From positions 758,289 through 822,288 of the forward strand of contig QPGO01000014.1 in assembly GCA_008632985.1 (NCBI GenBank): 64,000 bases of DNA, read 5' to 3'. Position 1 is the stretch's first letter, and each line of letters starts with the position of its first letter. The notes under the pieces are model-generated. The model worked only from the letters and a program-made list of their open reading frames with translations. It ran no database searches and was not told the origin of the DNA. Shown here one piece after another: positions 4,535-58,189 of this stretch. The DNA is from Psammoneis japonica (taxonomy: Eukaryota). Position numbers and translations under genes: made by a program.

Positions 4535-4563
4535 GAGGAGGAGGAGGAGGAGGAGGAGGAGGA
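4535..4563. repeat. (GAG)n microsatellite
   Basis: Direct run of gaggaggag... Confidence 0.9.
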
Positions 4564-9521: not shown

Positions 9522-10565
9522 ATGAGAGGAAAATTCTTAGCCTTAATCGCCCTTGGTTACCTTGGCGTAAATGGAAAGCTCCACAAAGGAGAAAATGCCC
9601 GTAAGGAGAGGAGCTTGATCGAAGACGGGGACGTCGTGAGAGTTGTAAGTTTCGTTATCTGATTACACAACACAATCTTGGCGATCAAATGTCTCATTAT
9701 AAAAATTGATTGCTTTGCTTTTGTTTCCACTGTAGCTGAGTGGAAGCGGAAACCCTGCCGTTTGTCCTGACAACTGCGATTGCCCCGACAACTGCGACTG
9801 TCCCGATAACTGCGACTGTCCTGATAACTGCGATTGCCCCGACAACTGCGATTGCCCCGACAACTGCAATTGTCCCAATAACTGCAACTGTCCCGACAAC
9901 TGCAACTGCCCCGACAATTGTCCCGACAACTGCAACTGTCCTCAGCCCCCGGATTGTAACTGCGAGGTAAGCAAAGGAATCTGCTTTGCGGCTTTACGTG
10001 TGTTAGCTAGCTAGGAGTTGTACTTCTTTGATTACGGTTCATTGCTCACCCTGCCGCTGCTTGATTGGTTTGTGGCTGCCAAATATAGCAAAAAACGAGA
10101 TGCGTGGAACCGAATGCTCTTAGTGAGACTCTCTGTGCCCAAACTTTCTCAGAAGAAGGTGATAGCGATGGTGGTTTCGGTTTCTTGCCTGAACCAAAGC
10201 TGTTTCCACCATTTTCTACTCACGACTTTGTCATGAGGAGCCAGTTGGCAGTGGTGGGTCCAGGATTGCACAGCCAGGCGGTGTGCCAAGGTGGCTTACT
10301 GCTTCTTGATGATACGGCCGCATTTGTGGGCTCCCTAGACTTCTCTGGTGTGCTTTCTGGCCCTGAAAGGCTTAGCCATCTCACAATCACAGGCGGAAGT
10401 GGAGTATTTCGATCAGCAACCGGAGCCTTTACGATTTGGAGCCTTGGCGCGAATTGTAATGTTGATGCAACGGGTTACTCAGGGCTCGTATCATACCTCA
10501 TCTCGGTTGTAGATCTCTGCCTCTTGGAAGAAAACTACGACATCCTCTTTCCTGCTGCTCCTTAA
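9522..10565 (+). CDS. Secreted protein with Cys-rich (CPDNCD/N)n repeat and C-terminal dirigent/allene-oxide-cyclase-like domain; 3 exons (9522-9644, 9736-9966, 10089-10565)
   Basis: Signal peptide MRGKFLALIALGYLGVNG. Two phase-0 GTAAG...TAG introns join the exons in frame with ORF 10104-10565. Motif LTITGGSGVFRSATG resembles the dirigent GG(T/S)G.F..A.G motif. TA content is normal. Confidence 0.75.
9763..9940 (+). repeat. 18-bp coding tandem repeat (~9.5 units) encoding CPDNC(D/N)
   Basis: tgyccyrayaactgcray units, with variation mostly at third codon positions in the Cys-Pro-Asp-Asn-Cys frame. Confidence 0.95.
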
Positions 10566-13500: not shown

Positions 13501-14589
13501 TGACAAATGTGAAGAGGATGACCAACCTTGCTGCACCAGTGTCAACAAAGATCTCAAGTTAATGCTGGCTCTTGGCAGACAAAGCATGACGTGGAACTTG
13601 ACTTGTCCCGACTTGGAAAGCACATTTGGAGCCAACCAATCAGATGGCACATGTCAAATGACAGAATTGGTGAAGTTGGCCATGACCAGTCTTGGTGCAG
13701 CAGCTTCTCAGAAAAGGAAAAGAAGGAAATGCCAATTGGTTCATTGTGCAGCCAATGAACAATTTGGTTGGAATTCAGTTTTTGCTGCCACTGTTGCTTC
13801 TGTGCAATGAGATTTTTTGCAGAAGAACTGCAACAATTGTGTCTTGCCATTGGAAGGACCAGTGTCAGAAAGATGTTGAATTCTGCCAGACACATTCACA
13901 AGCCAAAGCCGCTGTTCTTCTGAAAGCCATCTCATGCCGCACACCAGAAACTGAGACACAGTCGGGAACAAAGATGGACCCAAAATGGGCCACAGATTTT
14001 CTCCACCAGATTCAAGAATGAATGTTTTGGGCAGAGATTTGTTGCACACATGCACTGCCACAGGTCATGGCAAAAACTCAAGAGCAGCAAATGCACTGCT
14101 TGGCATGCTGTTCTTTTAAGGCAGATGCCGGATTTTGTCTGTCCCTGCTGACAAAATGGATTTGAGAAGAATGTGGCAAGACTGCTGTTTACAGAAGTTG
14201 CAGTTGAAGCATGCAACTGCCAGAAAATTCTTGCCAAGGATCAAGCAGTTCAGTGTGATCATGTTGCTGACAATTGCTGTGGCATCCACAGGAATGTTGC
14301 ACAGCTGCCTTTGTAATTTGGCAAAGTTGCCAGTCAGTGAGGGAGTCAACAACATTGCGATCAAGATTGTTGGTCATCTCTGTCAATTGGCACTGTTGAC
14401 AACTTTGCTCCTCTCTGTCAATGTTTGCTTCTGTTTGTCTGTGGCTGGGAACACCAGGTGGCAGTGCTGCAGTGCCACAATGGATGATCTGCAAGTCATT
14501 CCCAGCTTCATTCCATTCAAGCCCTTTCTCCCAAGCAATGTCGCAGGCAGCCAGCATCAGCCAATGCAGGACATTGACGTTGATGCATT

Positions 14590-15410
14590 GCATTTTACCA
14601 CGCAGCTTTGAACGTCTCTCTTTTGGCTCTGTCACCATCAAATCCACACACAAATGCACAGCAGGTCCAAGGTTGCAGGAAATCAGATGACACAAATCTT
14701 GATCCTGATTCTCGATTGTGCTCATTGATCTGACAAAAAAGATTGTTGGTGTGACCAACATGTGTCGACGTGTTGTCTTTCACTGAAAGCAACAAGTGCA
14801 CAAATCCCGATTCATCCCTGGGATGATCAAAGTCTTTTGGATGACATGGGAAGCATCTTAAGTCAAGCTCCAGTAAAGTCGTTTCACTCCCTTGAAATTT
14901 CTCAAGGAAGTGGCAGATGAAATCAGTGCATTGAGTGCGACGGAGGAGTGTGCCAGCCAGAGCATCTGTGCTGTCTTGTCAGGCTCACCAACAAACATGG
15001 TGTCTTGTCCACATTGTGTTCTAGACAAGAGGACTGCAATCTGTTCTTTCATCCAAAGAGAGTGCTCCTCCTTCAACAAATTGACCCCTGTCACCAAAGT
15101 TTCTGTTGTTTGACCAATGATGGAGTGACTTGTGCAAGCAACTCAATGTCACAAGCCATGTTGAGAGTGTCAAATTTGAAGTCCGCCTGGGAAAGAATGT
15201 GTTCTGGACAGAACACAAGGCATTGAAACTTCTCTCCATTGCAATTGGAGAAGCAGGGATTTGGAAGCACCTTGAGGAGGAAGACTCTTGCATCCCTCTG
15301 GGGCAACTGTCACTTGAATGGGTTCCATGTTGTGCTGATGGCATGTCTTCCTTGCACACAGCAGCAAGTTGCTTGGCACGGCATTTGTTGTCTTTGTTGT
15401 GCAACACTTT
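14590..15410 (-). mobile_element. Helitron-like remnant: PIF1-type helicase C-terminus followed by GIY-YIG endonuclease
   Basis: Minus strand reads GFVHLLLS...STHVGHTNNL...INEHN..SGS...LQPW (GIY-YIG with Y->H). Upstream LWMKEQIAVLLSRT...TMFVG resembles helicase motif VI. Confidence 0.6.
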
Positions 15411-15489
15411 TTAAAAACTGCACCAGGGAAGAAGAGTGACTCCAATGGCATCTTTGATTCTTTGGACAAAAAAAAAACAAGCTCTGGTT

Positions 15490-18400
15490 TTAAGTGCTGT
15501 TGCACCTTTGCCCAGCAACACCGGCGCCAGCTAACCCACACTTCCAGTGCACCCTGCGAGGGATGAGGCAGAAGATTGTGCAATTGGCCGGACTTGGCAC
15601 CCCCGGATGGGGCGCCTGACGGAAACAGCTGAAGATGGTGCAAGTGCCTCTTTTTGCCAGGCGTTTGGCTTCTTTCAAGCTTTCTTTGAGTCTTGGGCGG
15701 ACCACAGAGATCCAATTTTGAATCCTTGTTGCAGCGAATGTACGGTGTTCTTCGACTGAATCCAGCAACACACCTCTGTCTTTTGCCAAGTGTTCCTGAT
15801 GTTTGTTGTAAATCGCCATTAGTTTGGCTTCCACCTTTCTTGTTGCAATGACTTACGAGACTCCATGTTGTGTCCATTCACCAGCTGGTTGTGCTCCTCC
15901 CACAGTTCCCACCAGCTTCTCCACACGCAGGAACCTGTCTGGACTGTCCAATCTGGTGGTTGTTTGTTTTCCTTGTGACATTGACGCAAGATGCCCGAGT
16001 CGCGAAGACAGCCAGATTGAAGGAGGTTCCACATGAATGATTGTCTGCCGCTGAAGATCTGTCGCCATCCTGTGTCGGATTGAGCTTTCCACAACTCCTT
16101 GCATCTACAATCCACGTTGTCCAAGATGCATGATTTCTTTGTTAAACCATGCCTGCAGCATCTCCAATAGAAAGTCATGGAGAGCAGGCATTGTGTCCAC
16201 TTTGTCGCAGCATTTTTGCAGGCCTTGTAGAAACTTTCTCCTCCACTGTTTGTTGTTTGGACATCGTAGGATGTGATCCCCATCTTCCATTGGATGATCA
16301 CATGCAATGCACTGGTGGGGCCGAACTGGATCATGTCTGTGTGCAATTTTGTTGGCAGGTGGCAAATCACAGACCAATTTGACCATGTTGACGTGTTGCT
16401 TTGAGTGGCGTTTCACTGGGACTGCGTGGGCTTTCCAATCAATTTGATCAACAACTGAAGGGTGCCATTGGTTGTGCTTGACAATGTGTTCAATCAGTTG
16501 GGGAGCAGTGGCTGCGCATCTGATCTGTTTCTTGTAGTTTGTCGTGATTGCACTGCCTTCTATCTTGAGGTGGGAATGGCAATGTGGAAAATGTTTCACC
16601 TGCACCGCATCATGTGGACAGTGTTCTTGACATGCTCCTGCCAATCTGTCAGCACGGATGTCAACACGAGCATTGAGAGGCAAAGTGTGAACAGGGGGGT
16701 GCCTGTCTTGATGTCCTTTGACCCAGAGGACAGGAGGGAGAGCAAGGTCCTCTGAATCCGAAAGCCGCAGCAGAGCTTGCTGGGTGTGAAGGATCTCATT
16801 CAGTGCGCCCCAGTCTGGCGATGGGGCATTGGCCCCATGATGGCTGACATGAAAATTGTGAGTGGCTTGAACCTCTTCATTGAGATCAATCGCTGGCAAG
16901 GTAGATGTCAATCAAGACAAACAGTCAACCAAAGCCTTGTTGTCACAATGGACAACTGCATCCAGAGGAGCATTAATTCGACAATGTTCACACAGTTGAA
17001 AGATGAACCATGCAATCAATGGAATGCCGCAGGCCTCCACTCGGTGTGATGACAGTGTCTTTCCAAAGACTGGTCCTGCGCAATCCACTGGTGGAGTCCC
17101 GTCTGGTGTGATTGTCCAACTGAAGGCAGCTCCCTCCTGGACAGACCCGTTGCTGCCTGCCATGAGAGCAGACAAAAGAAAATGCTGGATCAGAGATTGA
17201 GAAGGAATGTGCAGTGCCAACTCATCAAACAACGTTGATTCCCAAGATGACAACTGTTGAAGAGTCTTGAGAAATGAATCTGGCATAGCGGCAGGAGTTG
17301 AGGACGTCAATGAGGTACGCGGAATCTCAAATTGCCATCAACCGTCCTCAGTTGTGGACACTTCTACCGGACAGGAGTCTTTGGAAGGGGTTGGCACTGT
17401 CTCTGTTTCCACCATTGAATCTGTTGTTGTTCCATTGGCTTGAAAAATGTTGTGACCATCCAAAGTGCCTGCATGCAAATGATCTTCAGATGGAGAAAAG
17501 CATGCGGTAGATTGCACTCTCATCTGTGATGGTGGAACCAGCCAATTGCCCAAAGGCTCCTTTAATCAATGTGTTCTTGGATGACACAAACTTGAGAGCA
17601 GAATTTCTTCCACACAGTCCAGGCTCTTGAACAAGGTTTGTGTTGCTCAATGTCATTGAGAGTGATGGTGCTGCTGTGCAGGGAAGGATCTCCTTTCACT
17701 TTGGACCCATTGAGAGTTGTCCCATCTGAAAGAGTTACATCTGAAACTGATGAGGCCTGCAGATACAAGCGGCAACAGTTGGTCCAACGGATTTCCCTCA
17801 TGGAGAAAGTCTGGGACTGCAATGCCACATCCATCAAATGTTGATCATTGTCTTGTTGAAGTGGGAGTGCGCTGTTGTGAGATGAGAACACTTGGCCATT
17901 GATCTCATGCAAAAATGCTCAAACTGACGCAAACCAGCGCAATTCCATGTGAGGTAACACTGTCTCCACGTCCCACAAGAAACTGTCACCAGTCCCCAAA
18001 TTCAGCTGAATCCATGCCACTGCAATGTGGAGAAGCTTGTGCGGCTGATCTTCCCCGAGTTGCAACTGTGCAACTCCTCTCAAGTGCTTTGACAATTGCT
18101 GAAGTTGAGCCACCCCTTGTTCAACATCTAACAATCAAAAACCTCCTCCTCCTGAGGACTGTGGTCTGTACAGTGTGAGCCTTTCGGTGTTTCTGTTGCA
18201 TCCACATTTGGCAAACATTGTCCACATGGCCTTTTGTTGGACCTGTTGGAGTTCTTTTGGAAGGAAATTTGAGCCAGCCAGCACATGTGTCATCAAGGAA
18301 AGGTGACACGCGTGACAATGCCGCCATGTTTTCATTCTATCCAGCAGGCACGACCTTAGAAACAAGGCAACGGCATTGCTCTTTTTTTGCAATTTAGGAG

Positions 18401-19870
18401 CCATGCAGTGTCCCAGGGTTTTGTGGGGAGCACAAGCTGACAATTGCTGACTGCACCTGGAGGTGGTTTGGTCAGCAGAAAAGATCTCTGACTTGATGTC
18501 GTCATGGCAGGGGCAGATGTGCGGCTCACCATGTTCTGTAAAGTCCCATTCAATGGCGTGGAAACAACACTTTGGCAGCTCCAATTCTTGTCCTGCAGCA
18601 TCCAATGAGTCACACCACAACTGGTCATCCGATTGGAGAGACTGGGACAACTTGAAAGCAGAAGGCTGAGGACTGGCTCTGAAATCATTCACTTGCTTGG
18701 AAGTGTCGTCAACATGACCTCTGTTGTGGACTTGGATGTAAAACTGCCCATCTGGCGTTTCAAAGAAAGGAGCCACAACAGCTTCAATGTCAAAGATGTC
18801 AAACAGTCTGCTGCGTGAAGTGTTCCAGTGCAAGGGAGAATTGCCACTGCATCTTTGATTCTTTGGACAGATGTTTTGACACCATGGCCATGCAGCTGGC
18901 TCTCTGATGTCCTTCCAGTGTGGACTCTTCATCCTGAGCCATGACAGCGATGCTTGGCACATGGTCAGTGTTGCGTGTCTTGTTGATGAGCATTTTTTCT
19001 GCTTGGAAGATGGCATTCCACCTCCTGAACACCTGGAGAGCCAAGTCCAGAATGCCGGGGTTATCCCAGCTTGGAACATGAAGTGAAACAGACTTGGCAA
19101 GACTTTTAAACTCCAACATTGTCTCTTGTGTCAGGTCTGTTGGAAGAATTCTCATCATGTCTTGCACTTGTTTGTGTGGTTCATCCAAAGAAGCTCTCAC
19201 AGATTGCTTCAACTGAAACAATGCAAAAGAGGTCAACAAAAACAGAGACAACAGTGGAGGACAACCTTGAACTGGGGGCAACTGCATGGGGTCCATCGTG
19301 GATGCAACCAAAATGCTGCCCATGAAAGCATTCAATCTGCAAATGCAATGCAGCAAGACATCCAAAGCAGCAAGCAACTCTGCCAACACCTGTCAAAGTT
19401 TGTCTGTCAACAACACATCCACATTTCCTTCGGTTTGCCATGTGGTTTCATGATGGTGATTTCAGCTTGTCGTGCAAGGGACCTGTGACTGGGCCTCAGT
19501 CAAGACCATCTGTGCATGTGCCGTCCTGCCAAAGCCAATGCACACTCAGCCATGTGAGCTGTTGACAAAGTGGTGAGGCCACAAGACATTGCCTTGATGC
19601 CCGCTGTCTCCACTCTGCAAAAAGTTTTTCAACACCCCGGACCACCCGCAATGCAGACAGATTTTGTGGCGGTTCTAGTGTTTGCAACACAATCATCTCC
19701 AAACACAACATCTGCTGCTTCATTGTTCATGGAAAATGCAGAAAAAGCACACACCCACAGCTGACTTGCTCCACAGTCAACACACAGCAGCACACTTGCC
19801 AAATGTTTCATCACAAATCTTCAACAGGTCCCACATCATTCCATCATTTTCCTCCCTAGACTGAAAGTTT
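15490..19870 (-). mobile_element. Decayed non-LTR retrotransposon (RT + RNase H + C-terminal Cys/His motif)
   Basis: RT motif GHVDDT and LELPKC..H. CRLYLQ..SVSDVT..DG. RNase H motifs GSNGSV..GAAFSW, SSHRVEACG, VHCDNKALV, WVKGHQD, NARVDIRADRLA. C-terminal CIAC...EDGDHILRC. Broken by stops and frameshifts; ends approximate. Confidence 0.85.
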
Positions 19871-21465
19871 CACAAACCAAATTTCCCAAATCAACAAACA
19901 ATGTCAAAAGACTCATGCCATGTGAAAGATCAGTCCAGATGGGCCGCTGCAAGCTCTGGCAAAACAACAGGCAAAATGAAAATGAGAGCGGGACAAAAAG
20001 CCAATTGTGAGCCACTGGGACACATGTCACAGCACACTCACCAGGGCACCTTCCAGAGAAAGTTCTGTGTCACCCAGCCAAATTTCATGGCCCCAAGCAT
20101 TGCCAGCAGTTCCTGCATGACAGACAGTGAAGACAACACCATTGCAGAGCAGGAAAAAAGGGCCATTGTAGACCAGATGCATGCACGTGTGAACCAGACA
20201 CACAAAAAAAAGGCTCGTGAGGTGCACAACTTTTGCAAAAATGACTCTAAAACTCAATCAATCACAACACACTCACATGATTATCTTCTTTGGAGTGTGC
20301 CAAGTCTGTCTGACAAATGCCAACATGTTGTGAGCATCCCCAAGGCTCCACTGCATTGTTTTGTTTCCACAGTGTGCACTTTTCAGAAATTGTGACGCCC
20401 AAAAAATGGCACGCCACAATGACGAGCCAACCAAAACCCCAAGAAGCAAATTAATGGGATCACAAGTCCATCGAGGTGTCAACAACAGTTGCACCAAAGG
20501 ATGCAGAGTGGGGCGAAGTGCAAAGCTCCCAAATGGATGCAAAGTGCAGCAGTGATCTTCAGTGACCAGGAAAACAACATAAAACAAGAAAACACAGAAA
20601 AAACTTACCTCGGCAACGTGTCGACCATTCAGATGTCACCCGCACCGTCACGAGTCGATGAACTCAACCGTTTGCACCGTGTGCAGCACAACCAAAGCAC
20701 CCCAGGAGACCGAACCAATGTGTCAACCTCTTTGTGACAACAGCAAAAAAAGATCCCCCCCACACTGCGACATGCATGGCCGTTTCTTACGGAACGACAT
20801 GCCAAATCGGGAGCGTTTGAGTGGAATGAAGGAAATGAAGAGGATTCCTCGTCAGGCGTCCTTGTCAAGTTTGTCCCAAAATGGACTTCTGCTTTCTCTT
20901 GTGTCCACATCAAAATGGAATTGCGTCCTTGTCAAATTCCACCGTGTGCACAAGTTCCAGTGCAATCCCACTGTGCACGTCACATGGAGCCATTGTCGAT
21001 CCCGTCTGACCGTGGCCACCAAAATTTTTCACCACGCGAAAAAAAATTTTTTTTGTGGAACGAACTGCCACGGCGACATCTCAACCAGTTCCAATGGGCC
21101 GTTGCGGCCTCTCCATGAACCAATGCGGAGCGACGCAGACATCTTCTCTTCCTGTGTTGAGTGGTGTGTAGCAAGAGGACACATCCAACATGGAGATGCA
21201 TTGGTGCTCGACACAATGCTTCGATTCACCTTCGCCATCACGAGTCGGAATCTCTCGATGAGTGTCTTTTTCGATGAGTTTGGCATCTTGCTTCTATTCC
21301 TGCCAACTCACCCCTCGAGTTGAATCCCATAGAGAAAATGCGGCTTACACTAGCACACGATGACTCAAAAGCTGGGACCTTCACTGTCCGCGTCCGGTGC
21401 GAGGTGCGAGACGAGCAGCGCACGCTGCTGCAGCCAAAATGGATTCGTTCATACATGATGACGTT

Positions 21466-22052
21466 TGTCATGTGGCACAAGGCCCATTGTGGGTGATTGT
21501 GGTGATTTTAAGAGTCGTTCATGAAAAGTGAGACTATAAAAGTGTAAAATTATGAAGTGAATTTCTGGAGCGGTGATCTCGCGGAATGTTCTTTCGATTC
21601 TTTCTTTTCCAGAGAAATTCTGTTCTCGTTATGTAGGAACGTTCCTGGGTTCTTCTTTAAGTGTGTGTCGTCTAAGGGAACGTCTTGGGACTTCTGAGGA
21701 GGTCACGTATGGTGTCCGAAAGTGTCACGGGAAAAATCGAGAGATCCGATTCGCTCTTCATCGTTTCGACCGTTTTCTTGTGAGAATCGGATTGGCTGAA
21801 AAGGAACTTGAAGTTCGGCTAAGAAATGTCTTCTCGATTTACTTAGGAAGTGACACACGTGTCCAGTTGTTTACTATCGCTTTCCGCATGTGTCCGGTTG
21901 TTTATTTAGGAGGAAGATGTTGGACAATTGTTCATGTAGCATGCATGTGTCTCTTGATGTATGTTCACGTAGATGTACATGGGGTTCTGTCCGTAGTTCT
22001 CTATTGTTCTTTATGACGTCTCGAAGTGTCGGGTCATGAGCACGACGTGACA
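21466..22052 (-). repeat. 3' LTR of Gypsy 1 (mutated copy)
   Basis: Direct repeat of 27494-28079 with 9 substitutions and 1 indel by manual alignment. Confidence 0.97.
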
Positions 22053-22075
22053 CGCGCCTCCTCCAATGAATCGCA

Positions 22076-25000
22076 TCAGGGAGAGAAAGGAACGAGACGC
22101 CGCGCATTGACGGTCTCGAGGTAATTTCCTTTTTGGATGATGACGGTGCCATTGGACTTTACTTCATGTGTCTCGCATGGGCCAAGTCGGCGTAAGGCGA
22201 GTTTGGATCGACGAGGGTTGTCGTTTCGGAGAGAAACAAGGTCTCCCACTTTGAAGTCATGGTCGAGTCGCCGAGAGTTTTCACGCGCGTCATCTGCTTG
22301 CGCTTGTTGTCGGCGGCGAGCACAAATGGTCGGCCAGTGGACGTTGCATTGTAAGGGAAGGATCACATCTCTTCCAAAAGCAAGTTGGCCGGCAGAGGCT
22401 TGCATGACGGCATGCACCGTCGAATTTGTCGCCCAAGTTGCTGAGGCTGTTGTCGCATTCCACGGATTCGGTTGATTAAATGCGTCGGGATCATCGACTT
22501 GTTGGGCCCGCATGCAGCTCCACAAAACATCGTGGGTCCGTTCAAGCAGTGAATTCGCCTGTGGGTTCCGTGCTGTCACAGGTTTAGACTTGATCCCACA
22601 AGAAACTGGCAGTTCTTGAAATTCAATGCCTGTAAATTCCGCACCGTTGTCGTGTGTGCAATAGACCGGGCGCGGAAATTTGCATGACCACGCTTGGTCA
22701 AATGCTCTGGCAGCTTCCAGAGCTGAGACTGTGGAGATCTGCTCCACACCAAAACAATGAGCAGCTGGATCTGCCATCGTGAGGGCGGTTGACGTCAAAC
22801 TTCGTCGGTTGACACCGGCACCAGTGGCAAAGGTAATCGGTCCGACAGTGTCGACTGCTGCCTGCAACCAGGGGTCAATCTCAAGGGCTTGTGTGTCCTC
22901 AAGAGGTGTTTTTCCATACACTCTGCGGTTCTCTTTTGACTGTAGACAGGTCTGGCATTGGTCTACCTTGGTCTTGACGTCTCGGGTCAAACCTTGCCAA
23001 TGACAGCACTGCCTGAGGGTCTTTTCCATTCGTTGGATACCTGGATGGCGTAAATTGACATGATGCCAGTTCAACAGAGGTGCTTGTAAAGTTGTGGGGA
23101 CAACAATCTTGTCCTTAAAAAGGACTGGGCGCAGGTGTCCATCCTGCACCATGCAACTGCAGTCAGACAATTCTTTCCGACTCGGGTCGGTTCGAGTAAG
23201 TTGCAATGCTTTTTTGCACGTAGCATCATCTTGCTGTGCTTCAATAATCGTGTCAAACGAGATAGGACAATGAGTGTTATCGTCGTATTCAAAGGCGAAA
23301 CACTCTTCCAGCGTTGGATCTGCAGCTGGCATCTCTGGGTCGCTAGTCGTGGTCGCGGCACGTGATAAGAAATCCGCGAGCACATTTTTTGCTCCCGGCA
23401 GGTAAAGAATCGTGGGACCAAATTCCTCAACGATCAGTCGCCAACGACATGCGCGGTCTGACTTGAAATTTGCAAAGGTCAGATTCTTGTGATCCGTGTA
23501 GATCGTGATCCTATGACCCAATAGGATGTCACGATACTCTCGTAGCGTCATAACTGTCGACAGTAGTTCTTGTTCGATAACTGGATGTCTTTTTTGTGTG
23601 TCGGAGAGTTTGCGGGAGTAGAACGCTATCGGGCGCTTGTCTTGAATGACAACGCTTCCCAGCTGGTATTTCGAAGCATCGGTGTAGATGTAGAACATCT
23701 TATTGAAATCAGGGTAGGCAAGAAGCGTCTCGGTAGAGATCCGTCTCTTAATTTCTTGAAACGCTTGCTCGTGTTCGGGTTTCCACTCGAACTTGACCGC
23801 TTTCGAGGTCACACTCGAAAGAGGTGCCAATAGATGGGCACGAAGTCGCCACATCTCGCGATAGAAGTTTATCATTCCAACAAAACCTCTGAGTTCTTTC
23901 TTTGTTTTGGGCGAAACCAAATTCATAATCGCATTGACTTTCTTGGGTTGCGGTTTGATTCCGTTTCTAGCAACAACAAACCCTAGGCACTCCGTTTCTA
24001 GAGCGCAAAAGAAAGTTTTTCGCAAGTTTACTCTAAAGCCTGCATCATTCAAAAGCACAAATGCTTCGCGCAATTGGGCGAGGTGATCATCAAAGGATCC
24101 CTTGCCAATAATCAACAAGTCGTCGATAAAAATCAGAACGAATTCCAAGTGTCCTAGCAAGTCAGTCATGACTTCTTGGAATGCATCTGGGGCTGGTGCA
24201 AGTCCCATTGGTAATCTGCAATGAGCACATTTGCCGAACGGCAGCACAGCAGTCAGATGCTGCTGACTCTTCTGGCTGATCCGTATCGTAAAAAATCCCA
24301 TGTTCAAATCGATCGCTGTAACATGAGCACAGCCATGCAGCTTTCGGAGCATGGTTGGTGTCAAAGGTAGAGGCCATGGGCGTCGTTGCATGCGTTGATT
24401 TAACAGCCGAAAGTCGGTGACAAATCGGCAATCACCACCTTTCTTCGGCATGAACATTGAGGGAAATCCCCAAGCTGAGTCTGAGATCCTTCTCAGAACT
24501 CCTACTGGCATAATCTCTCTGCTTCTCCTTTTGCCATGTTGCAGTTGATCTGGGGTATGCTGCAAGGTCGGCACATGATGGGCTCGGTGCCGGGCTTAAG
24601 CTCAATGTTGACCGGTGGTCGCTTGACACAATGTCCGAGCTCTCCTTGCGTGAGACTGGAGAAGTCTTCTAGCAAAGTGACAAGAGCTTCACCTTGCTCT
24701 CTCGACAAGTGCTCGGGCACACACTCTTGTAAGTCCTCTGTGGGACTGTGGTCATTTGGGCGAATGGCTTTGGCCTTACGAGCCGCCATGAGCTCTTCTT
24801 GCGTCGTCGGTCGGTGCCAAAAATCCTCGGGATATCTCATCGGAAAGGACAAGTCATCCCAAGCAATGACTTTTTCCTGGAAATCAAGCTTCATTCCAAG
24901 CTTGAATGGAACATCTCGTCCTGCAACAGCATCATAGATTCCTTGTGATGATGAAACACAAAAGCACAAATCGAACTGTCTGTGCAAGGATGTGTCAAGG

Positions 25001-25245
25001 AATCGACAACGAGTGAGTGCGACATGAGTTGTCTGATGGGTCTGCGCAAACAAGGTCTCCCATCTTGTTGGTGCTAAGGTGGCCTCATCCAGTGCTTCTT
25101 TTGAGAGCACATCTCTCTTTGTTGTTGTTCGACTGCTGCCGCTGTCGAGTGAGGCGAGTGGAACATTGTTGCTTTTGTCTCGAGTCCCATCAACTGGATC
25201 GAGTAGTTGAAGTCGCACGATGCATCGGGGTTCTTCCACTTGCAT
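22076..25245 (-). pseudogene. pol: Gypsy 1 pol (protease, RT, RNase H, integrase), frameshifted near 24540
   Basis: ASLDSGSS protease; FVTDFRLLN, RLPMGL, FIDDLL RT; YTDASKYQLG, AFYSRKL, YTDHKNL RNase H; HPG..R, DTVGP, HDNGAEF, NPQAN..LER integrase. Confidence 0.93.
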
Positions 25246-27323
25246 TTTTGAGGCTTTCGTGCTGCGTGTCTTCTCGGCTTCTTGTTGCCACTTTGCTCCT
25301 CTTCTTGTTCTCTGAGATGGTCAGACATGCCATCTCCAAAGACTTCTTCTTCTTGGTGGAACCAAGTACGATACTCTTCATCATCTAGGTACACTACACC
25401 AGGTTCACAGTAAAAGAAATCATGATCACTGGATGCACTCAAATGCTCGTAACCATCACTCTGAGGGTCTGGTTCAGGCATTCGTGCTGCTGGTTGTGGC
25501 TCAGGCGCCACGGCTGGCATAAGTTCATTCGTCATATAGATACTCTCTTCATCGGTATCGGACTCTGGAGCCGCTGACATTTTCTTATCGGACTCGCTAT
25601 TCATGAGTTCGTCTGCCGATACAGCTCGCTTCGTCTTCGAGGCAGTTGCTCGATGAGAAAGTGAGCGACATTGCTCATGTGTGTAGGGTTCGGTGTCTTC
25701 GGACGTTTTCGAATGTCCTTCTTCTTCTTCGAATTCGTCTGGGTCACCTGGAACATATAAGTTCCTTCTCGTAGGATATATGCCCCCATGAGGGAACACT
25801 ACGTAGTCGCAATCGTCCATTCCATCTGGATATAATGCTTCTATCAACTCCTGGGCGTCCGTGCTGTTGTCATGCTCGAAAATTGATGATGTCAGAGATG
25901 CGCACTCATCCGCGCTGTCTGCTGTAGCCTCATACTCGTCATCGGCATCTTCTCCAAAAGATGACAGCTCGTCCATAGACGACATACGTAAGGTTGTCGA
26001 CGATACTGTTGACATACTACTAGCGGTACTCCACAAATCATCGCTGTCTGACGATGTTGATCCGCTGTGCGGCACGAATTCCGGCATGCTGGATGCATCA
26101 GTTGTTTCTGCTGGGTCCATGGGAGGTCTCTGTCTCTGTTGCAGCTCAAAGTCTTCTGGCAACAGAACGCAATAGTTCTCTTCCACGTAAGTATCATATT
26201 CTCCGTCTGATTCTTCATAAGAGTAACTCGTATCGTCTTCTGGTATCTCAAGTCCGTCTTCTTGTTCATAAGATTCAGGTTCAGAATCATCTCTTATGCT
26301 AAGTTGTTCCAGTTGTTCAGCTGGGGCTGAGTCTATACTGTTGTCCGGGTTCTGGACTGGTAGAGCTTCTTCTGGCTCGTGTACGGCACGTATTTCTTGC
26401 CGGTTCGTTCGGGTACGTCCTCTCTGTTGACCATAGCCTTGAGGACGGTTCCTATCACGCTGTAAGTTGGCTTGGTATCGAGTAGGATATCTATGTGGTT
26501 GGTTGGGAGGAGCTCCGGCGTTGTTATTGTTATTATTGCTCGGTCGTGTCGCTCGGTCGCCTCCATGTCCGTATGCGGTTCGGTAGCCGTGAGTGGGGAT
26601 ACGTCTCTGGAATCGCCGTTGGTTGTTTGACAACCTTCTCTCTTGTTGGGCCTTCTTCTTCTGTAGGAAGGATTCAATGGTGGAATAGTATGTCTCCAAG
26701 TCTGCCATACCATACTCACCTCTGTGTCCGACGGATAGTTGGAATCTCTCTCGCCAATCATCCGGCACAGCATGCTCTGCTGCATAAGTTAACTCTTGGT
26801 CCGTGAGAGGGGCTCTCTCTTCTGCAGAGCCTCTCATGTAGGGTACTAGCTCATTGATTTCCGAAATTCTGGAGGTGAATTCAATGAAGGTAGTTTCTCT
26901 TGGCTTGCGTATGGAGCGCAAGTACTGCTTCTGCACTGCCGCTGAGTCTCGAGGAAGCAGTCCAGCAGTGACTGTCTCTACTGCTGTATCAAACTGTTCA
27001 GGGGTAAGTTCTTCTGGATTTTCAACTAGAGCTCTTACCGCTCTCTGATATCGGTCCTTGATGGAGCCTCTGGTTAGGCATAACATCTGGCAATGAAGTA
27101 CTGGTCCTGTTGTCCAGTGCTTGACCGTTCTTAGCTCATTAAAGTCTTTTAAAAAGACTAGGTACTTCTCCTTGATGGAGGTATCACACTGATGGATATA
27201 AAATGCCACCGTGTCTTCCGGTTCTCCCGGGTCTGGCGCAACCTTGTACTTGATTAGGCTCGCAACGTCGTCCGCTACTTGGGGGTACGACTTGTATAAC
27301 TTCACAATCGCTTGACTAGTCAT
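25074..27323 (-). CDS. gag: Gypsy 1 gag-like ORF with long acidic C-terminal region
   Basis: 749-aa ORF between the 5' LTR and pol. QKQYLRSIRKP...F.SRI.EIN matches the gag of Gypsy 2 (LQKRCLRRFMRKP...RAVEIN). Confidence 0.85.
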   Translation of the reverse strand: MTSQAIVKLYKSYPQVADDVASLIKYKVAPDPGEPEDTVAFYIHQCDTSIKEKYLVFLKDFNELRTVKHWTTGPVLHCQMLCLTRGSIKDRYQRAVRALVENPEELTPEQFDTAVETVTAGLLPRDSAAVQKQYLRSIRKPRETTFIEFTSRISEINELVPYMRGSAEERAPLTDQELTYAAEHAVPDDWRERFQLSVGHRGEYGMADLETYYSTIESFLQKKKAQQERRLSNNQRRFQRRIPTHGYRTAYGHGGDRATRPSNNNNNNAGAPPNQPHRYPTRYQANLQRDRNRPQGYGQQRGRTRTNRQEIRAVHEPEEALPVQNPDNSIDSAPAEQLEQLSIRDDSEPESYEQEDGLEIPEDDTSYSYEESDGEYDTYVEENYCVLLPEDFELQQRQRPPMDPAETTDASSMPEFVPHSGSTSSDSDDLWSTASSMSTVSSTTLRMSSMDELSSFGEDADDEYEATADSADECASLTSSIFEHDNSTDAQELIEALYPDGMDDCDYVVFPHGGIYPTRRNLYVPGDPDEFEEEEGHSKTSEDTEPYTHEQCRSLSHRATASKTKRAVSADELMNSESDKKMSAAPESDTDEESIYMTNELMPAVAPEPQPAARMPEPDPQSDGYEHLSASSDHDFFYCEPGVVYLDDEEYRTWFHQEEEVFGDGMSDHLREQEEEQSGNKKPRRHAARKPQKCKWKNPDASCDFNYSIQLMGLETKATMFHSPHSTAAAVEQQQREMCSQKKHWMRPP

Positions 27324-27493
27324 GTCCTCCTGTACTGTATAAGTATTATCTTGAGGTAACGCTCTAAAGTACTATTCTTCAGTTCCGTCGAACTGGGGGC
27401 TACGTACGTAGGCTTTCTTCGCCTTAAGTAGAATGCTCAGTACTATGCTGAGAGGCGGTATTATTATAATGATACGCCACTGTTTGATCAAAA

Positions 27494-28079
27494 TGTCATG
27501 TGGCACAAGGCCTATTGTGGGTGATTGTGGTGATTTTAAGAGTCGTTCATGAAAAGTGAGACTATAAAAGTGTAAAATTATGAAGTGAATTTCTGGAGCG
27601 GTGATCTCGCGGAATGTTCTTTCGATTCTTTCTTTTCCAGAGAAATTCTGTTCTCGTTATGTAGGAACGTTCCTGGGTTCTTCTTTAAGTGTATATCGTC
27701 TAAGGGAACGTCTTGGGACTTCTGAGGAGGTCACGTATGGTGTCCGAAAGTATCACGGGAAAAATCGAGAGATCCGATTCGCTCTTCATCGTTTCGACCG
27801 TTTTCTTGTGAGAATCGGATTGGCTGAAAAGGAACTTGAAGTTCGGCTAAGAAATGTCTTCTCGATTTACTTAGGAAGTGATACACGTGTCCAGTTGTTT
27901 ACTATCGCTTTCCGCATGTGTCCGGTTGTTTATTTAGGAGGAAGATGTTGGATAATTGTTCATGTAGTATGCATGTGTCTCTTGATGTATGTTCACGTAG
28001 ATGTATATAGGTTCTGTCCGTAGTTCTCTATTGTTCTTTATGACGTCTCGAAGTGTCGGGTCATGAGCACGACGTGACA
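27494..28079 (-). repeat. 5' LTR of Gypsy 1 (TA-retaining copy)
   Basis: Direct repeat of 21466-22052. Confidence 0.97.
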
Positions 28080-29167
28080 CGTTGCCGCGGCGTGCGCTCT
28101 ATGTGGCTACATAAGCTAAACTAGATCACTACTAAAACGACAATAGATTGCAATTTTGATTTTGACAACTAGAGTACTAGAAGATATCAATCTACTTAGC
28201 TCGCTAGTCCACTCTAACAATCTTGTGGCCTGGATCGCGGCTGCAGCGGCGTCTTCTATTCAAACACAACATAGCACTCTTTTTCTCCACACTGTCAATG
28301 AAATCAATGAAACAGCTACAAGCTTTTCATATTCCATATTGTCATCGCAGACTCCCACATTCAATTTGCAATATCTTGAATACACATTCACTGCATTGCT
28401 ATTGGAAACATCAATGCATGAGTCTTGCTTCCATCAAAAAACAAACAATCAATCCCAACACATGATGTCCAAATCAGATCACTCGTCACCAGCGACATCA
28501 TTATCGGGCACTACATTGGATCCTTGGGAAAGCCCAAACTCGCCCATATCATCTCCTACCTCCTCGTTGATCGGATCGAACTGCTCCTGTACGGTGCGGG
28601 CTCTTTCCTCCTTTTCACGCTGCAATACAGCCCATTCCCAGGTTCACAAACTTATTCAACACATAAAAAGAGATTGTTAGACAGCGAGTCATGTGGGGAG
28701 AAACCTGTTTGTAGCACAAACAAACGACTTTCGTCGATTTCACGGCAAACAAACAACAATTTGCACATTTTTTGCCAATTCTCTCTCTTGGAACATACCT
28801 TGCTAGTTCTTTCGCATTACAGCTTTGTTAATCATACAAAGACGTTTACAAAACGCACCTGGACGTCTCTGGGCATTGCCTGGTTGCCAAGAAAACACAC
28901 CGAAAGTTGATCTGATAGCATGATTGTTTGATTCGTTCCCCAAAAAAAAATCTTTTCTTCTTTCGCTTGCTTTCGCGCGTTGAAAATTTTTTTGGTGGCC
29001 ACGGTCAGACGGGATCGATAATAGAAGTATTAATACCTAGGGCCCTACCGGTAGGTACGGCGGTAGCTGGATTGCAAACACACGATGCATTACCAAACTA
29101 TTGCGCTGAGGCAACAAAGAAGAGCCAGCTTAGACTCTCTTTAGAGTATAGAGGGCTGTTCTACATC

Positions 29168-30517
29168 ATGTCGTCCAATCCGTCGTTGTGGACGCTGTCG
29201 TGTTTGTTGTTGTTGTTGTCAACAGCATCAGTGTCCGCCTTCTCAACGCCAGCAAGTGCATCAACATCGCGGGTCGACATTGGTCAAACTGCACCCCGGA
29301 ATATTTTTGGGATGCAAGAGTGGGCCAAAACGAGTGGCGTTGAAAGTTGCAAAGGCTTTCGGTTAACCAGTGATCCTGTAGATGAACAAGATTGGTCAGT
29401 TTCGACCACAAAATCGTTGTCGGTCAATGAAGTGGTCGTTACGGTACCATCTCAAATTATTCTGTCCAGTAATGACGTGATTGACACACAAATCAATTTA
29501 CAACAAGCAGAGGTTGTCCTAGAAGAGAACGATTTGGAAGATCAAATTCCTCTTTTTCGGTTGTATGTCAATTTGCTGCTACAATATGAGCTTGGAGATC
29601 AATCTCCATGCTTTCCATGGCTCAATTCTTTACCACGACGATTTTACAACGGTGTAATGATGACATCGGCATGCTTCGAATGCTTACCTCCTTATGTCCG
29701 TTACATCGCTGAGAAAGAATGTTACACGAGTCAGTGTTTTCAACAAGCTCTTCAATACGCCGAAGCAATTTCAGAAATGACAATGTTGAACACAGACTTG
29801 CTCAACTGGGCCTATTGTGTTGCCGTCACACGATCCTTTGGAGTCAACACTGGTGCTGACAACGACAAGACATGTCGAGTTATTGTGCCCATGGCAGACT
29901 ATCTTAATCACGGGAGTTTTGAAAACGAAGTTGAGCTAACCTTTGATCAAGATGGGAACTGCATTGTCTATGCTGCGCGGGATGTATCTCCCGGAACGCC
30001 TTTACGACTATGCTATGGAGATCCCACCAATCCGTCCATCTTTTTTGCCACCTACGGGTTTCTCGATAAGTCCTCCCCTGCCACATTTTGTAAACTAATG
30101 CATTTACAACAAGAAATGGCCGAGTTGAAGCTAGACTTCTCGGATTTGCTATTCTACAAAGACACTGGGGAAATTTCCCCTCAAGTTTGGGATCTTCTGT
30201 TGTATTCCATCCTGAAACAAGAGCAGCAAGTTTCGGAAGAAGATCTACTACAAGGATTCTATGACGCATATGCGGCAGATGATGTTGACACCAAGAATCT
30301 CTATCATCAACACTACTTCCAACACACATTGCAGGCGCTCCACGATCACGTCGATGGGATGCTGAACGAACTAGAGTCGCTTTCGGAACTGGCAAAAACT
30401 TTGGACATTGCGAAACACCCCCGTCTCTCTCTCATTAAACAACACAATGATTTTGTCAAAACTACATTTCTGAAAGTCAAAGCCAATTTGAATGCCATGT
30501 CCTCTGGTGATCAGTAA
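29168..30517 (+). CDS. Plastid-targeted SET-domain (Rubisco LSMT-like) lysine methyltransferase
   Basis: Signal peptide ending VSA|F (ASAF-type). WAY..A.TRSF, IVPMADYLNH and LCYG.......FATYGF SET motifs. Single exon. Confidence 0.9.
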   Translation: MSSNPSLWTLSCLLLLLSTASVSAFSTPASASTSRVDIGQTAPRNIFGMQEWAKTSGVESCKGFRLTSDPVDEQDWSVSTTKSLSVNEVVVTVPSQIILSSNDVIDTQINLQQAEVVLEENDLEDQIPLFRLYVNLLLQYELGDQSPCFPWLNSLPRRFYNGVMMTSACFECLPPYVRYIAEKECYTSQCFQQALQYAEAISEMTMLNTDLLNWAYCVAVTRSFGVNTGADNDKTCRVIVPMADYLNHGSFENEVELTFDQDGNCIVYAARDVSPGTPLRLCYGDPTNPSIFFATYGFLDKSSPATFCKLMHLQQEMAELKLDFSDLLFYKDTGEISPQVWDLLLYSILKQEQQVSEEDLLQGFYDAYAADDVDTKNLYHQHYFQHTLQALHDHVDGMLNELESLSELAKTLDIAKHPRLSLIKQHNDFVKTTFLKVKANLNAMSSGDQ

Positions 30518-30619
30518 GTCCAGTTGGCACTCGTAAGATACGGTAATTGTCAGCATCCCCTCTAGGAACTACAGACACTTTTTCGGATGTCTAATAAGCT
30601 GTTCGCTTTTTTCGGATGT

Positions 30620-33600
30620 CCAATGCACTGTCACTACAAATGCCTTAGATCCTGTCACATGCTCATGGTGTGCCGACAGCTTGGCACTGAGCGACTGTGG
30701 TGCCAGCAGTCATGGCCATGTGAACATGTCCACAAATGACAGGCAGACAAAGCCTTTGTGCACGTCTGCTCTTTGTTGCTTCCGAAGACAATTGACCAAC
30801 AAGGATGCGGCCAACCCAAAGAACATTGCAGCAGTGAGACATGCAAAGTGATGCTTCATTTTGCACACTGTGCAGTCTTGCACTTTTCTCTCATGTGTCC
30901 AATGAGATCAAGCAAATGGGTGCACATCGTGTTCGGTGCTGGGGAACGCTGCTTTGGGGAAAATCTGTTCTCAAAAATGCAGCTGGGTTTCCTTTTGGCA
31001 TTTGTCAAGCATTGATGAGGTCACAGCAGTTGTTTACAGTTTTGGCACACAGTGGCCATGGTTGAATGATTTTAGTCACTGGTGCTCAGTGTCAACAATG
31101 CCGGGTGCGGTGGGCGGGCCACACTTTCCACCCCCACGAGTCTGTGCATTGGCCACACCTCGTGCACTTCACACACCCTCAGTTGCATGCAAACTCTCAC
31201 AGAGCCGGGATGGACAACATGTGCCAGGTTTGCATGTGCGCCTGTGCCCCAGCGTGGCTCAAGAAATTGCCTTGCCAAATCCTCTGCAAGGCATTCTGCA
31301 CAAAATGTGCCAAAAAATGTGCCGGCCACACCATGGTTTGATTGCATCATCTCATCAAAGCCAGCATGCCATGCTGACCAACAGTTGCTGTCAAATCTTT
31401 TGCAAAAATGTGCTGTGGCGCATTGGAGTGGAAAAAATTGGTGGCTCTCGTTCCACTCAATTTCATTCAAGACCAAATGAGGGCAAAAAATTTCCCTGTT
31501 TTGGCCAGCACTTGCTTGTGCCATCAACTGTCATTGTGTGCTCCACTCCATCATGCCATTGGAGATGCATTGTGACAATGCTCTGCAGCTCTGGACAACT
31601 TGCAAGCTTTCCCTGGATTTGTTTCTGGGGCAATTGGCTTCTCAAACCACCAAATTGGAAAATCAGACTTCTTGCAATTTCATTGCAACTTCTTGTCCCC
31701 ATGTGGGCCAAACGTCCGGACAAGTTTTTGTGGTCAAAGCACTTGACATTGAAGCTGTCAAGCAACTTGTGGAGAACTGGTCTGCCAACCAAGATGGAAG
31801 GCACAGCCTCACTTGCTTCTGAACAAAGCCTTTGTTTGCAAGTTTCTTGCTGCAATGTGAGCATTCAAGGTTTTTGTGCAAAAGATTGGTGCTGGTGCAG
31901 CAAATAGAAAGTGGGCTGCTGGCGAGGTGCTCTCAACTCCAATGGCATCAATGTCCAGCACAGCTCTCTTCAAAGCTGATGCAACAGCAACCCTCAAATC
32001 TGATTTCTTTCGGTGCATCTAACGGAGCTCTCTCTTCCAACTGCATTGATCATTGGCCATGCAACACACCAACACTGTCCTTTGTTTCCAAGCATTGCTG
32101 CCAGGGAAAATTGCAGTGGCAGTTTGTTTGTGCAATGATTTCTGCACATTGCTGTTCCATGCTTTTTATTTGGCATTGCCACTTCCAGCCCAATTCAAGC
32201 TGGGATTGGGCTGGTTGAGATTGTGCTGCAGGAGGTGGCAGCTGCAGACTAAAGTGCAAAATGTGCATGGAAATCATTGCACAACTGCAACTTTCCTTGC
32301 TTGCATGTGGAGACACCCAGCACCTCTTGTGCCCACACACATGCTTGTGGCATGCCTCCAGCTCAGCACTGGCTGTGGTGCCAGCAGTCTCAACAATGTG
32401 AGCACATCCACAAATGACAGGTGAAGCCTTTTGCGCACATCTGCTCTTTGTTGCTTCAGAAGATGATTGACAAAGGACATGGCCAGCACAAAAACATCAC
32501 AACAGCAAGACATGCAAAGCGATGCTCCATTTTGCACAGTGCACAGTTTTGCACTTTTCTCTCATGTCCAAAATGAGATCAAGCTTTTTTCATGTTTTTT
32601 GGAGATTTCAAGATGGTTGCATCAATTTCTCACCTCTTGGGTGGACTCAGTGCCACTGGTGATGCTTCAACAGTGCTGCCAAGCTCAAGAGGCAAGCTCA
32701 TGTGACAACATTGTGAGTTGTCAGTCTGCAAAGTAACTCACTCAAAAGGGCTTGTGCTTTTTGCAGGTCAGTGCTGTGAAGTGTGAAGAAGAGTGACTCC
32801 CAGAGACAATGCTGCACATCTTCCAGCCTGAACCACCCAGCTCAAAAACCAGTTGTCCAAACAGACCATTGCATTGCTCATCAACAGAAACCACTCTCAT
32901 GGCTGCTGCAACAAATTTTTTTTGGCATTTGGAGCACTGCCACTGATCTCACAAGGCCCTGCATCCCCCACTCCCACCACCACTTCTGTTCACTTGTGCA
33001 GCCAACTGTGCTTGTTGGTCTGTGCCATGGCTCACATTGAACATCCTTGTGCAAAATGGGTGCTTGTTCTTGGACTGTGTGTCACATGCTTCCTGGGCTG
33101 TTGGGAAGTGTCTGGTCTGTGTGGTCAGAGCACTGTGCACCATCTTGTGTTTCCAGCTGACCAACAACATGAGGGACACATGGCAAGTTGGCAGCAGGGC
33201 TTTTTCCATCATTTGTTTCATCAATGTCACTTGTTCTGCAGCTTCATTTCACAGTCTAAAAATTGACATGAATTCCTGAACAACTCTGAATGACAATCAG
33301 CACAGTGCAGGGCCATTTGCCTTTCCATTGACTCCAGCCAACCTGGAAAGGTCTTCAATCTGCTTCCCATGTGGGGGGCACCTCAAGAACACTCTTGCAC
33401 CTTGGATCACAGAGAATCAAAACAAAGAACCAGAGCACCTTTCCCACCCTGTTGACCACAAGTGTTGACACACAAACATTGTGCTCATGCTGTGTTAAAC
33501 ACCCAGTGCAAGACCTTGGAAAGAATTGCTTGAAAAGTCATCTGCAGAAGCAACAGCTGACCAAAACATGTCGAGGCAGTGGGGCTGCCCGCAACTTCAA

Positions 33601-34300
33601 AAAATGGCCTTTTGTCACTGTCGACTTGCCACGCACCTCCAATGTGCTTGTTGGATGCTCTTCAGGTGTGATTGCCACTTGATTGTGAACGTGGAAGCCA
33701 CTGCACAAACAACTCATTCACGATGGTGGGTTGCCACCAGGACCTTCTTGTGCACTCACTGACTGGGGCCGATTTTTCACTGCCGCAACTGGGTCTTTGG
33801 ACACAGTCGTGGGCCAGGGTGTGGCTGGCCCACTTTCTCTCCCTGCGATCATGCCATGCAGTCTCTGCATGTCATGCAACATCATGCAAACCCAACTGAC
33901 CAAAGAAAGCTTGGTCATCAATGAGCACTTTCATGCCTCAGCCCTCACACACAGACTCCACATGTGAAAGCACAGCAGGGCCTGCTGGGGGGGATGCCAC
34001 ATTTTTTTAATTCTGAAATCACCCCACTGCATCCAAAGGCTTGGCAGCGGTGGCTGTGGTGCTGTGTTGAACACTTGGGTGTTGCCACATGGGCATCACT
34101 CCCACAGTGCATGTTCAATGGAAAGCAACAGCAGTGTCGGTCTGTACGATGATTTCTACATACATGTGTTTTGTACCTTTGTCTGTCACTGCCACCTCGC
34201 TCCAGCCCGATCCCAAGCATCGCACAGACAGACTGCCACTGCGATTTTCCTTGCTTGCTCGCTTGGCGACACGCGACACGTAGCCGCGCGCGACACGATA
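30620..34300. mobile_element. Block C: decayed retroelement-like DNA with ~255-bp degenerate direct repeats
   Basis: TpA/CpG-depleted. 30655-30913 and ~32338-32584 are diverged direct repeats ending ...cacttttctctcatgt..aatgagatcaagc. Family not determined. Confidence 0.65.
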
Positions 34301-43523: not shown

Positions 43524-43799
43524 CGTTATTGTCCTTCAAAACCTTACGTCAAGAAGTTCAAAACCGATTCTTCTAAAACCAACAATCCAACAGAACAATG
43601 AAGCTTCAATTCAACAGGAAGCAGGCAATGAGTGGATCGTGGTGCATCAAGTGGCGACCGTATTGTTGCTGTTTCAGCGAGTGGCAGAAAAGTGAAAACT
43701 GAGCTGGCGTGATGGGTGATGGGTCGCGAGTAAGTCGTGAGTCGTGAGAGCGCGGTGATGGGAACCGACGTGAAAGCAAGAAAGGTGGAGGTACGCAGT

Positions 43800-46600: not shown

Positions 46601-46676
46601 GGACTCGGGCTGATCGATCTGGAGACTGCGGAGATAGATTTGGGATTAGGCCTTCGCGATCGCTTGTCAGAAAACC

Positions 46677-54885: not shown

Positions 54886-54929
54886 CACTCCCCCATGATC
54901 AGGGCCGTCAAGTGACAGGATGTCTTGCT

Positions 54930-58145: not shown

Positions 58146-58189
58146 TGTGTCAAAACTGCCTGCATCGTGTCGGCCCCCTTCTCAGGCAT

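Follow-up and report, generated by a model that had tools for sequence, protein, structure and literature searches.

Probable region-confined TpA to CpA/TpG hypermutation of transposon-derived DNA in a likely diatom, including the left LTR of a Gypsy retrotransposon

Comparison of the two long terminal repeats (LTRs) of Gypsy 1, an LTR retrotransposon located at positions 21466 to 28079 of a 64-kb stretch of contig QPGO01000014.1 (the window, that is, the whole stretch of 64,000 nucleotides that was analysed), revealed that every substitution between them is an exchange of TA in the right LTR for CA or TG in the left LTR. Together with sharp-edged blocks of DNA that are nearly devoid of TA, and with the direction of change in a second, older element (Gypsy 2), this pattern points with good probability to a hypermutation of TpA to CpA or TpG that is confined to regions of transposon-derived DNA and that included the left LTR of Gypsy 1. 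The host is most likely a diatom. An ABC1-kinase open reading frame (ORF) of the window (39684-41423) is 58-59% identical to its closest database proteins, and ten of its best 120 matches come with an organism name, in every case that of a diatom: Seminavis, Nitzschia (two), Mayamaea, Fistulifera, Attheya, Cylindrotheca, Epithemia, Pseudo-nitzschia and a Chaetoceros-like MMETSP entry. The host thus most likely lacks a close relative among the proteins searched, and the low identity together with the diatom names led us to reject the chlorarachniophyte Bigelowiella natans as the source of the window.

The two LTRs of Gypsy 1 (21466-22052 on the left and 27494-28079 on the right) were compared with MAFFT and blastn. 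They are 98.3% identical over 587 aligned bases and differ by nine substitutions and by one extra G in the left LTR. In left-LTR coordinates, the substitutions are located at 21485, 21665, 21667, 21724, 21854, 21925, 21940, 21978 and 21981/21982; the last one and the indel lie within a run of G, where the placement is ambiguous by one base. All nine are transitions, with TA at all nine sites in the right LTR, and CA at five and TG at four in the left LTR, so that the left LTR has 24 TAs and the right LTR 33. All 32 CpGs are common to both LTRs and, the extra G aside, no class of difference other than TA versus CA/TG was found. The alignment thus confirmed the nine sites, their states, the extra G and the absence of CpG differences described in the initial annotation. 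It also supports the accompanying claims that both strands were affected (five sites versus four) and that TpA changes faster than any other mutation class, as neither CpG nor any other class changed. If the changes had occurred at C or G, the probability that all nine would fall in a CpA/TpG context (80 of the left LTR's 255 C/G sites) is 2.9e-5; if they had occurred at A or T, where the 33 TAs represent about 66 of about 341 sites, it is approximately 4e-7 (computed by hand). The 9:0 split of the changes between the two LTRs has a two-sided binomial P of 0.004. Strand runs along the LTR (C, GGG, CCCC, G) numbered four versus about 5.4 expected in a hand calculation, which is not significant, and the 64-kb window contains no further copies of this LTR.

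Both LTRs run TGTCA...TGACA, starting with TG and ending with CA, and since the identical four bases CGTT flank the pair as a target-site duplication (21462-21465 and 28080-28083), they belong to one insertion. This supports the proposal, also made in the initial annotation, of changes that postdate the insertion and occurred in the chromosome. The genes of the element are on the minus strand, and therefore the left LTR is the 3' LTR and the right LTR the 5' LTR. The interior (22053-27493) has three ORFs on that strand, each one frame back relative to the preceding one: a gag-like ORF of 749 amino acids (25074-27323; 4.7% Tyr), an ORF of 247 amino acids with the protease motif LDSG (24502-25245; 0.8% Tyr) and a pol ORF of 832 amino acids with reverse transcriptase (RT), RNase H and integrase zinc domains (22076-24574; 1.6% Tyr). 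The Pfam order in pol is RVT_1, RT_RNaseH and Integrase_H2C2, with the protease motif DSG upstream, and a purine-rich tract adjoins the left LTR inside the element. Gypsy 1 is a Ty3/Gypsy retrotransposon. Among 25 columns of its pol in which Tyr is conserved in homologues, seven have His or Cys and ten have Phe, and the latter include the FIDD motif at the RT active site; Phe in these columns might be a lineage trait or an avoidance of TA codons.

The two LTRs adjoin very different DNA. On the left is a block almost free of TA (10961-21465; observed/expected ratio (o/e) of 0.07-0.11 for TpA and 0.20-0.41 for CpG). The right flank (28084-30580) is genic DNA of normal composition, with 33 TAs in its first 620 bases and a SET-domain ORF (28928-30517).

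The LTR pair alone gives no direction of change. CA and TG could be ancestral, in which case the left LTR would be unchanged and the right LTR would have undergone C to T mutation at CpA, driven by methylation or by a process like repeat-induced point mutation (RIP). The change of CpA to TpA is the classical signature of RIP (PMC2621366), and two LTRs form a linked repeat, the substrate of RIP. The composition of the window argues for the opposite direction. Over the whole window the TpA o/e is 0.31 and the CpA/TpG o/e about 1.5, and this bias is unevenly spread: about 46% of the window consists of the sharp-edged blocks, with a TpA o/e of 0.05-0.15 and a CpG o/e of 0.20-0.48, and in the affected DNA the CpA/TpG o/e reaches 1.7-2.1. 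Besides the block that adjoins the left LTR, these include the segments 1-9260 (TpA o/e 0.05, CpG o/e 0.24), 30581-34280 (0.07 and 0.23, respectively) and 43541-46840 (TpA o/e 0.06), the first two of them CpG-poor as the third also is, and the flanks of Gypsy 2 (53381-54451 and 59754-61680). The blocks are complex, non-repetitive sequence. Stretches with host domains (SNF2, ABC1, LRR and SET) have normal TA and CpG, with 11-28 TAs per 500 bp.

A count of dinucleotides in 500-bp bins showed where the lost TAs went. The 53 TA-poor bins have means of 2.0 TA, 6.5 CG and 114.2 CA+TG, and the 47 normal bins have means of 18.7, 25.4 and 76.5, with nearly the same total of pyrimidine-purine dinucleotides (122.6 and 120.6, respectively). 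The gain of 37.7 CA+TG in the TA-poor bins is close to the loss of 16.7 TA plus 18.9 CG (35.6), and this balance is the product expected from transitions of TA to CA/TG and of CG to TG/CA, the opposite of RIP. Mutation of CA/TG to TA is unable to yield TA-free DNA, and the direction from TA to CA/TG is therefore favoured. C to T mutation at CpA would leave DNA rich in TA and short of CA/TG; such DNA occurs nowhere in the window, and the long-term trend is the opposite. About three quarters of the CpGs in the old blocks were lost as well, to TpG/CpA.

The direction of change could be determined by comparison with homologues in Gypsy 2 (54452-59753, minus strand, target-site duplication CTCC), an older insertion within TA-free DNA whose LTRs (54452-54886 and 59321-59753) are 93.8% identical. 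The ORFs of its 4.4-kb interior have 0.2-0.4% Tyr versus 4.07% (standard deviation 0.51) in 120 homologues, and His and Cys are raised. For outgroup polarisation we used the columns in which Tyr is present in 60% or more of 101 homologues. At these 29 conserved Tyr columns Gypsy 2 has His or Cys in 24, Tyr in one and another residue in four; with the earlier set of 120 homologues, His or Cys was found at 15 of 18 such columns. The RT motif YxDD reads HLDD. Conserved residues of other kinds are mostly retained (His 12/14, Cys 4/4, Trp 17/19 and Gln 12/14), and none of these 51 columns changed to Tyr or to a stop codon, the change that C to T mutation at CpA would cause. The direction of change in Gypsy 2 was thus TAY to CAY/TGY. 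Its frames are mostly still open, and a frame change near 56418-56490 separates RT from RNase H in pol.

The LTR pair of Gypsy 2 is informative too, since every transition between the two copies lies within the set CG, TG, CA and TA. There are seven TG/CA doublets, five TA singles, six shared TAs, five CG singles and 27 shared CGs. A CpG ancestry of the doublets was rejected because it needs a nearly saturated loss of CpG, which the 27 intact CpGs contradict; if TA was the ancestor, each LTR has lost roughly two thirds to three quarters of its TAs (computed by hand). The interior of Gypsy 2 combines a TpA o/e of 0.29 with a CpG o/e of 0.89. A similar intermediate state, TA-poor and CpG-rich, is displayed by the final kb before Gypsy 1 (20501-21465; three and six TAs and 23 and 32 CpGs per 500 bp), which holds an ORF of 221-246 amino acids with no family match. 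In both regions the loss of TA is well ahead of the loss of CpG.

Decay of methylated CpG resembles the process in that the old blocks lost so much of their CpG to TpG/CpA. However, its loss lags behind that of TA, and CpGs differ at 0 of 32 in the Gypsy 1 LTRs and at five, versus 27 shared, in those of Gypsy 2. As a source of the nine differences CpG decay was discarded, since it explains none of them.

The neighbouring bases of the TAs that were lost or retained provide the best available argument that the left LTR of Gypsy 1 lost TA. We tallied the contexts of 111 TAs in old blocks and of 872 in normal DNA. Among the survivors in old blocks, TTAA is enriched 6.1 times, CTAA 2.0 times and GTAA 1.5 times relative to normal DNA, and ATAT (0), ATAC (0.13), GTAC (0.43), ATAA (0.50) and ATAG (0.56) are depleted. 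In the Gypsy 2 LTRs the doublets correspond to ATAG, ATAC, ATAA and GTAC, and the singles to CTAC, CTAG and ATAA; the shared surviving TAs are in CTAA, TTAA, GTAA and CTAG. When the right LTR of Gypsy 1 is taken as the ancestor, all nine changed TAs are in ATAN/NTAT contexts versus 11 of the 24 unchanged ones (Fisher P = 0.005). The nine sites thus carry the fingerprint of the process that emptied the blocks. Both LTRs retain a canonical-looking TATAAAAG (21555-21565 and 27583-27593), on the plus strand and antisense to the element genes, and the TAAA within it is a context resistant to the loss of TA.

The TA-free blocks, the replacement of Tyr by His or Cys in Gypsy 2 and the agreement in context favour the view that the nine sites were originally TA. 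C to T mutation in the right LTR, conversely, would have struck sites that fall in exactly the TA classes lost from the old blocks, and the 749-amino-acid gag ORF beside that LTR contains no stop codon. Judging from the ABC1-kinase matches, moreover, the host is not a fungus, and we consider this alternative improbable. Like RIP in ascomycetes, the pattern is transition-only, dinucleotide-specific and post-integration, and the process inactivates repeated or mobile DNA; but RIP enriches TA through the change of CpA to TpA, whereas the process described here removes TA and enriches CpA/TpG, creates no stop codons and leaves ORFs open. RIP belongs to fungi with a RID-type methyltransferase and a sexual cycle and mutates each member of a linked duplication, in contrast to the 9:0 split observed here, and the fact that one of two identical repeats 5.4 kb apart took all the hits argues against homology as the trigger. 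Based on the TpA o/e of 0.05-0.15 and CpA/TpG o/e of 1.7-2.1 of the blocks, the split between the LTRs and the non-fungal host, fungal RIP was rejected.

Public sequence reads allowed us to compare the stretch with other copies of the family. One sample (runs X1-X3 of one study) contains it, and in X1 we found 1082 contigs of at least 85% likeness over 20300-27480; contig cover and depth were not taken as copy numbers. The variants of these contigs relative to the window comprise 700 transitions and 119 transversions. With so many contigs and variants, the Gypsy 1 family is abundant and diverse. There were 834 differing places, and among the 40 of them that were listed, which include none of the nine LTR sites, 19 are exchanges between TA and CA/TG and seven between CG and CA/TG. 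The block beside the left LTR is also repeated in the genome, as several contigs match 20300-21260. At the flank sites 20722, 20986 and 21302 the window has TG and X1 contigs have TA, which could reflect a recent loss of TA, a second haplotype or base-calling error. A metagenome scan with the Gypsy 1 gag gave 574 pattern matches and no relatives, and one with a 24-base word of the LTR gave no match.

These data bear on two further explanations. The first is that the differences are technical, caused by systematic miscalling of modified bases, by a mosaic of haplotypes or by wrong assembly of an LTR present in many copies, and it could account for the three flank sites as well as for the extra G of the left LTR, which is absent from contigs with 600 of 625 depth units; the many copies of the family would also make mis-assembly easier to envisage. 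Nevertheless, one X1 contig reproduces the TA-free flank (20300-20828) with two differences over 529 bases, and contigs in gag show 0 to 2 differences from the window. The replacement of Tyr by His or Cys over the 4.4-kb interior of Gypsy 2 and the nearly TA-free blocks of 10 kb are too complete for miscalls, and the context classes are coherent over three independent data sets. An artefact is therefore quite unlikely.

The second is that a diverged family member overwrote one LTR by gene conversion or recombination, so that the pattern is real and arose elsewhere in the genome. An abundant and variable family, in which exchanges between TA and CA/TG are frequent among the places listed, would offer donors. 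However, the target-site duplication is intact, and the differences span the LTR from 21485 to 21982 without any other type of difference; a donor differing at TA sites alone would itself require the same process. We give conversion only a small probability.

Editing before integration would be a different route to the same substitutions, either by ADAR- or ADAT-type enzymes acting on RNA or by deamination of cDNA during reverse transcription. The change of A to G after U is a known preference of ADAR/ADAT according to a recent preprint (10.64898/2026.01.13.699255). If minus-strand cDNA were edited once plus-strand strong-stop DNA had been made, the 3' LTR alone might in principle be marked. 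In the retroviral replication scheme, both LTRs are copied from one template, and RNA editing would for this reason leave them identical. Moreover, an editor of one strand would not divide the changes five to four between the strands, and the flanks, which are not retroelements, are TA-free too. Known editing by APOBEC3 (C to U on cDNA) and ADAR (A to I on RNA) in animals is similar in producing deaminase-type transitions with a neighbour preference in genomic copies of LTR elements (PMC4866542); it differs in that it is pre-integration, affects one strand and leaves the LTRs of a new copy alike, whereas here the LTRs differ, both strands changed and the flanks are affected. The single-strand ADAR/APOBEC signature, identical in both LTRs, was thus not found in Gypsy 1, and editing before integration is extremely improbable.

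We therefore return to hypermutation of TpA in the chromosome of the host. A host process would act on silenced DNA derived from transposons and turn TpA into CpA or TpG, an A:T to G:C change on either strand; it would be much faster than CpG decay and would prefer ATAN/NTAT contexts over TTAA. Gypsy 1 may have inserted at the edge of a block that was already TA-free, and the left LTR, touching this block, would then have lost nine of its 33 TAs, and the right LTR, touching genic DNA, none. Gypsy 2 is bordered by TA-free DNA left and right, and each of its LTRs was hit (three and two TA singles); the state of the flanks agrees with that of the LTRs in both elements. This suggests, as a working hypothesis, that position or chromatin domain, rather than sequence homology, determines what is targeted. 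The chemistry might be a deamination of adenine at 5'-TA-3' in DNA, as has been hypothesised for B. natans.

Several points weigh against this interpretation. That the nine LTR sites were originally TA is deduced and not directly observed, and the link between flank and LTR comes from two elements only. Run X1 is possibly the assembly's own sample and hence not fully independent. The window contains no deaminase, and no enzyme was identified. The interior beside the left LTR (22021-22940) has a TpA o/e of 0.20 versus 0.53 in the left LTR itself, so much of the TA poverty of the interior predates this insertion, and a gradient of TA across Gypsy 1 as a sign of spreading was rejected on the same ground. 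Finally, the precedent described below comes from a lineage of a different supergroup and is published as a preprint.

That precedent is the chlorarachniophyte B. natans. Of 231 mutations that arose in two viral inserts of its mutation-accumulation lines, 230 were A to G or T to C, all at TpA, at a rate in the viral regions about 1000 times the background and in only some of the lines (Mettrop et al., bioRxiv 10.64898/2026.01.13.699255). The preprint also describes TpA-poor, CpA+TpG-rich clusters of the genome enriched in RT and DDE domains, and proposes an ADAT2-like protein as a possible DNA adenine deaminase; the words diatom, LTR, retrotransposon and CpG are absent from it (10.64898/2026.01.13.699255). 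The two cases are alike in the A:T to G:C change at TpA on both strands that gives CpA/TpG (in ours, with the direction that we infer at the nine LTR sites), in its confinement to delimited foreign or mobile DNA with host genes spared, the blocks of the window being sharp-edged, and in the long-term trace of TpA-poor, CpA+TpG-rich clusters. They differ in the host, which belongs to Rhizaria in one case and is most likely a diatom, a stramenopile, in the other, and in the targets, which are giant-virus and virophage inserts there and an LTR retrotransposon and relics here. The TpA o/e is 0.45 in the viral region, according to the preprint, versus 0.05-0.15 over about 46% of the window, and the loss of TA is accompanied by loss of CpG here. 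In B. natans the mutations were observed as new, whereas our evidence is comparative, the three flank sites with TG in the window and TA in X1 contigs being the only hint of new change. The preference for ATAN over TTAA and the 9:0 split between identical LTRs were seen here, though Table S2 of the preprint might reveal a like context preference. Full-text literature searches, with most subscription journals outside their coverage, found no diatom report of a process that erases TpA.

Taken together, these elements allow a broader and more tentative reading, to which we would give somewhat less than an even chance: a diatom defence, guided by chromatin domain or position, that edits adenine at 5'-(A)TA(T)-3' in DNA, rewrites transposons as open, meaningless TA-free sequence, extends from silenced DNA into an adjoining insertion and has a common origin with the system of B. 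natans. If it were true, A-to-G editing of DNA would be an old and widespread defence among algae of the SAR group (stramenopiles, alveolates and Rhizaria), and position, not homology, would decide which of two identical LTRs is hit.

As TAA and TAG are absent from them, the TA-free blocks are rich in long ORFs. They contain 84 ORFs of at least 110 amino acids, and in a Pfam search none of the 84 was above the cut-off; sub-threshold matches to GIY-YIG (E 0.004) and SPIDER (E 0.006-0.007) were disregarded. The only relic found in these blocks is a decayed Gypsy integrase at approximately 44179-45084, on the plus strand, in a block with one TA in 2.5 kb; it shows 27-35% protein identity to Gypsy 2 and carries frameshifts. 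A codon-by-codon comparison of this relic (44.2-45.1 kb) with Gypsy 2 was abandoned because, at 27% identity and with frameshifts, it is too decayed to count.

Other features of the window include an island between two TA-free blocks (9261-10960) with normal TA (16-20 per 500 bp) and normal CpG, a 133-bp tandem duplication (3414-3679) and, near 4530-4560, a run of (GAG)n. At the right end, an open-ended ORF (61769-64000) has PT disordered repeats where the DNA (63.6-64.0 kb) is tandemly repeated in units of about 108 bp.

The mechanism would be the mirror image of RIP, and it has practical consequences for the study of such genomes. Long spurious ORFs without a family match crowd the mutated DNA, because TAA and TAG disappear from it and stop codons are not newly created, and these ORFs will mislead gene callers and transposon annotators. 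LTR divergence is unusable for dating insertions, the 1.5% of Gypsy 1 being all hypermutation and all in one LTR. The identical LTR pair with its 9:0 split represents a natural experiment that separates targeting by position from targeting by sequence, and the preference for ATAN over TTAA provides a fingerprint against which a candidate enzyme can be matched. A defence that erases TpA looks to have been reported so far from one unrelated alga only, B. natans. If our finding is confirmed, the host would represent a second eukaryotic lineage with a TpA-targeted A:T to G:C hypermutation of mobile DNA, and diatoms are far more tractable than the first lineage as well as ecologically important.

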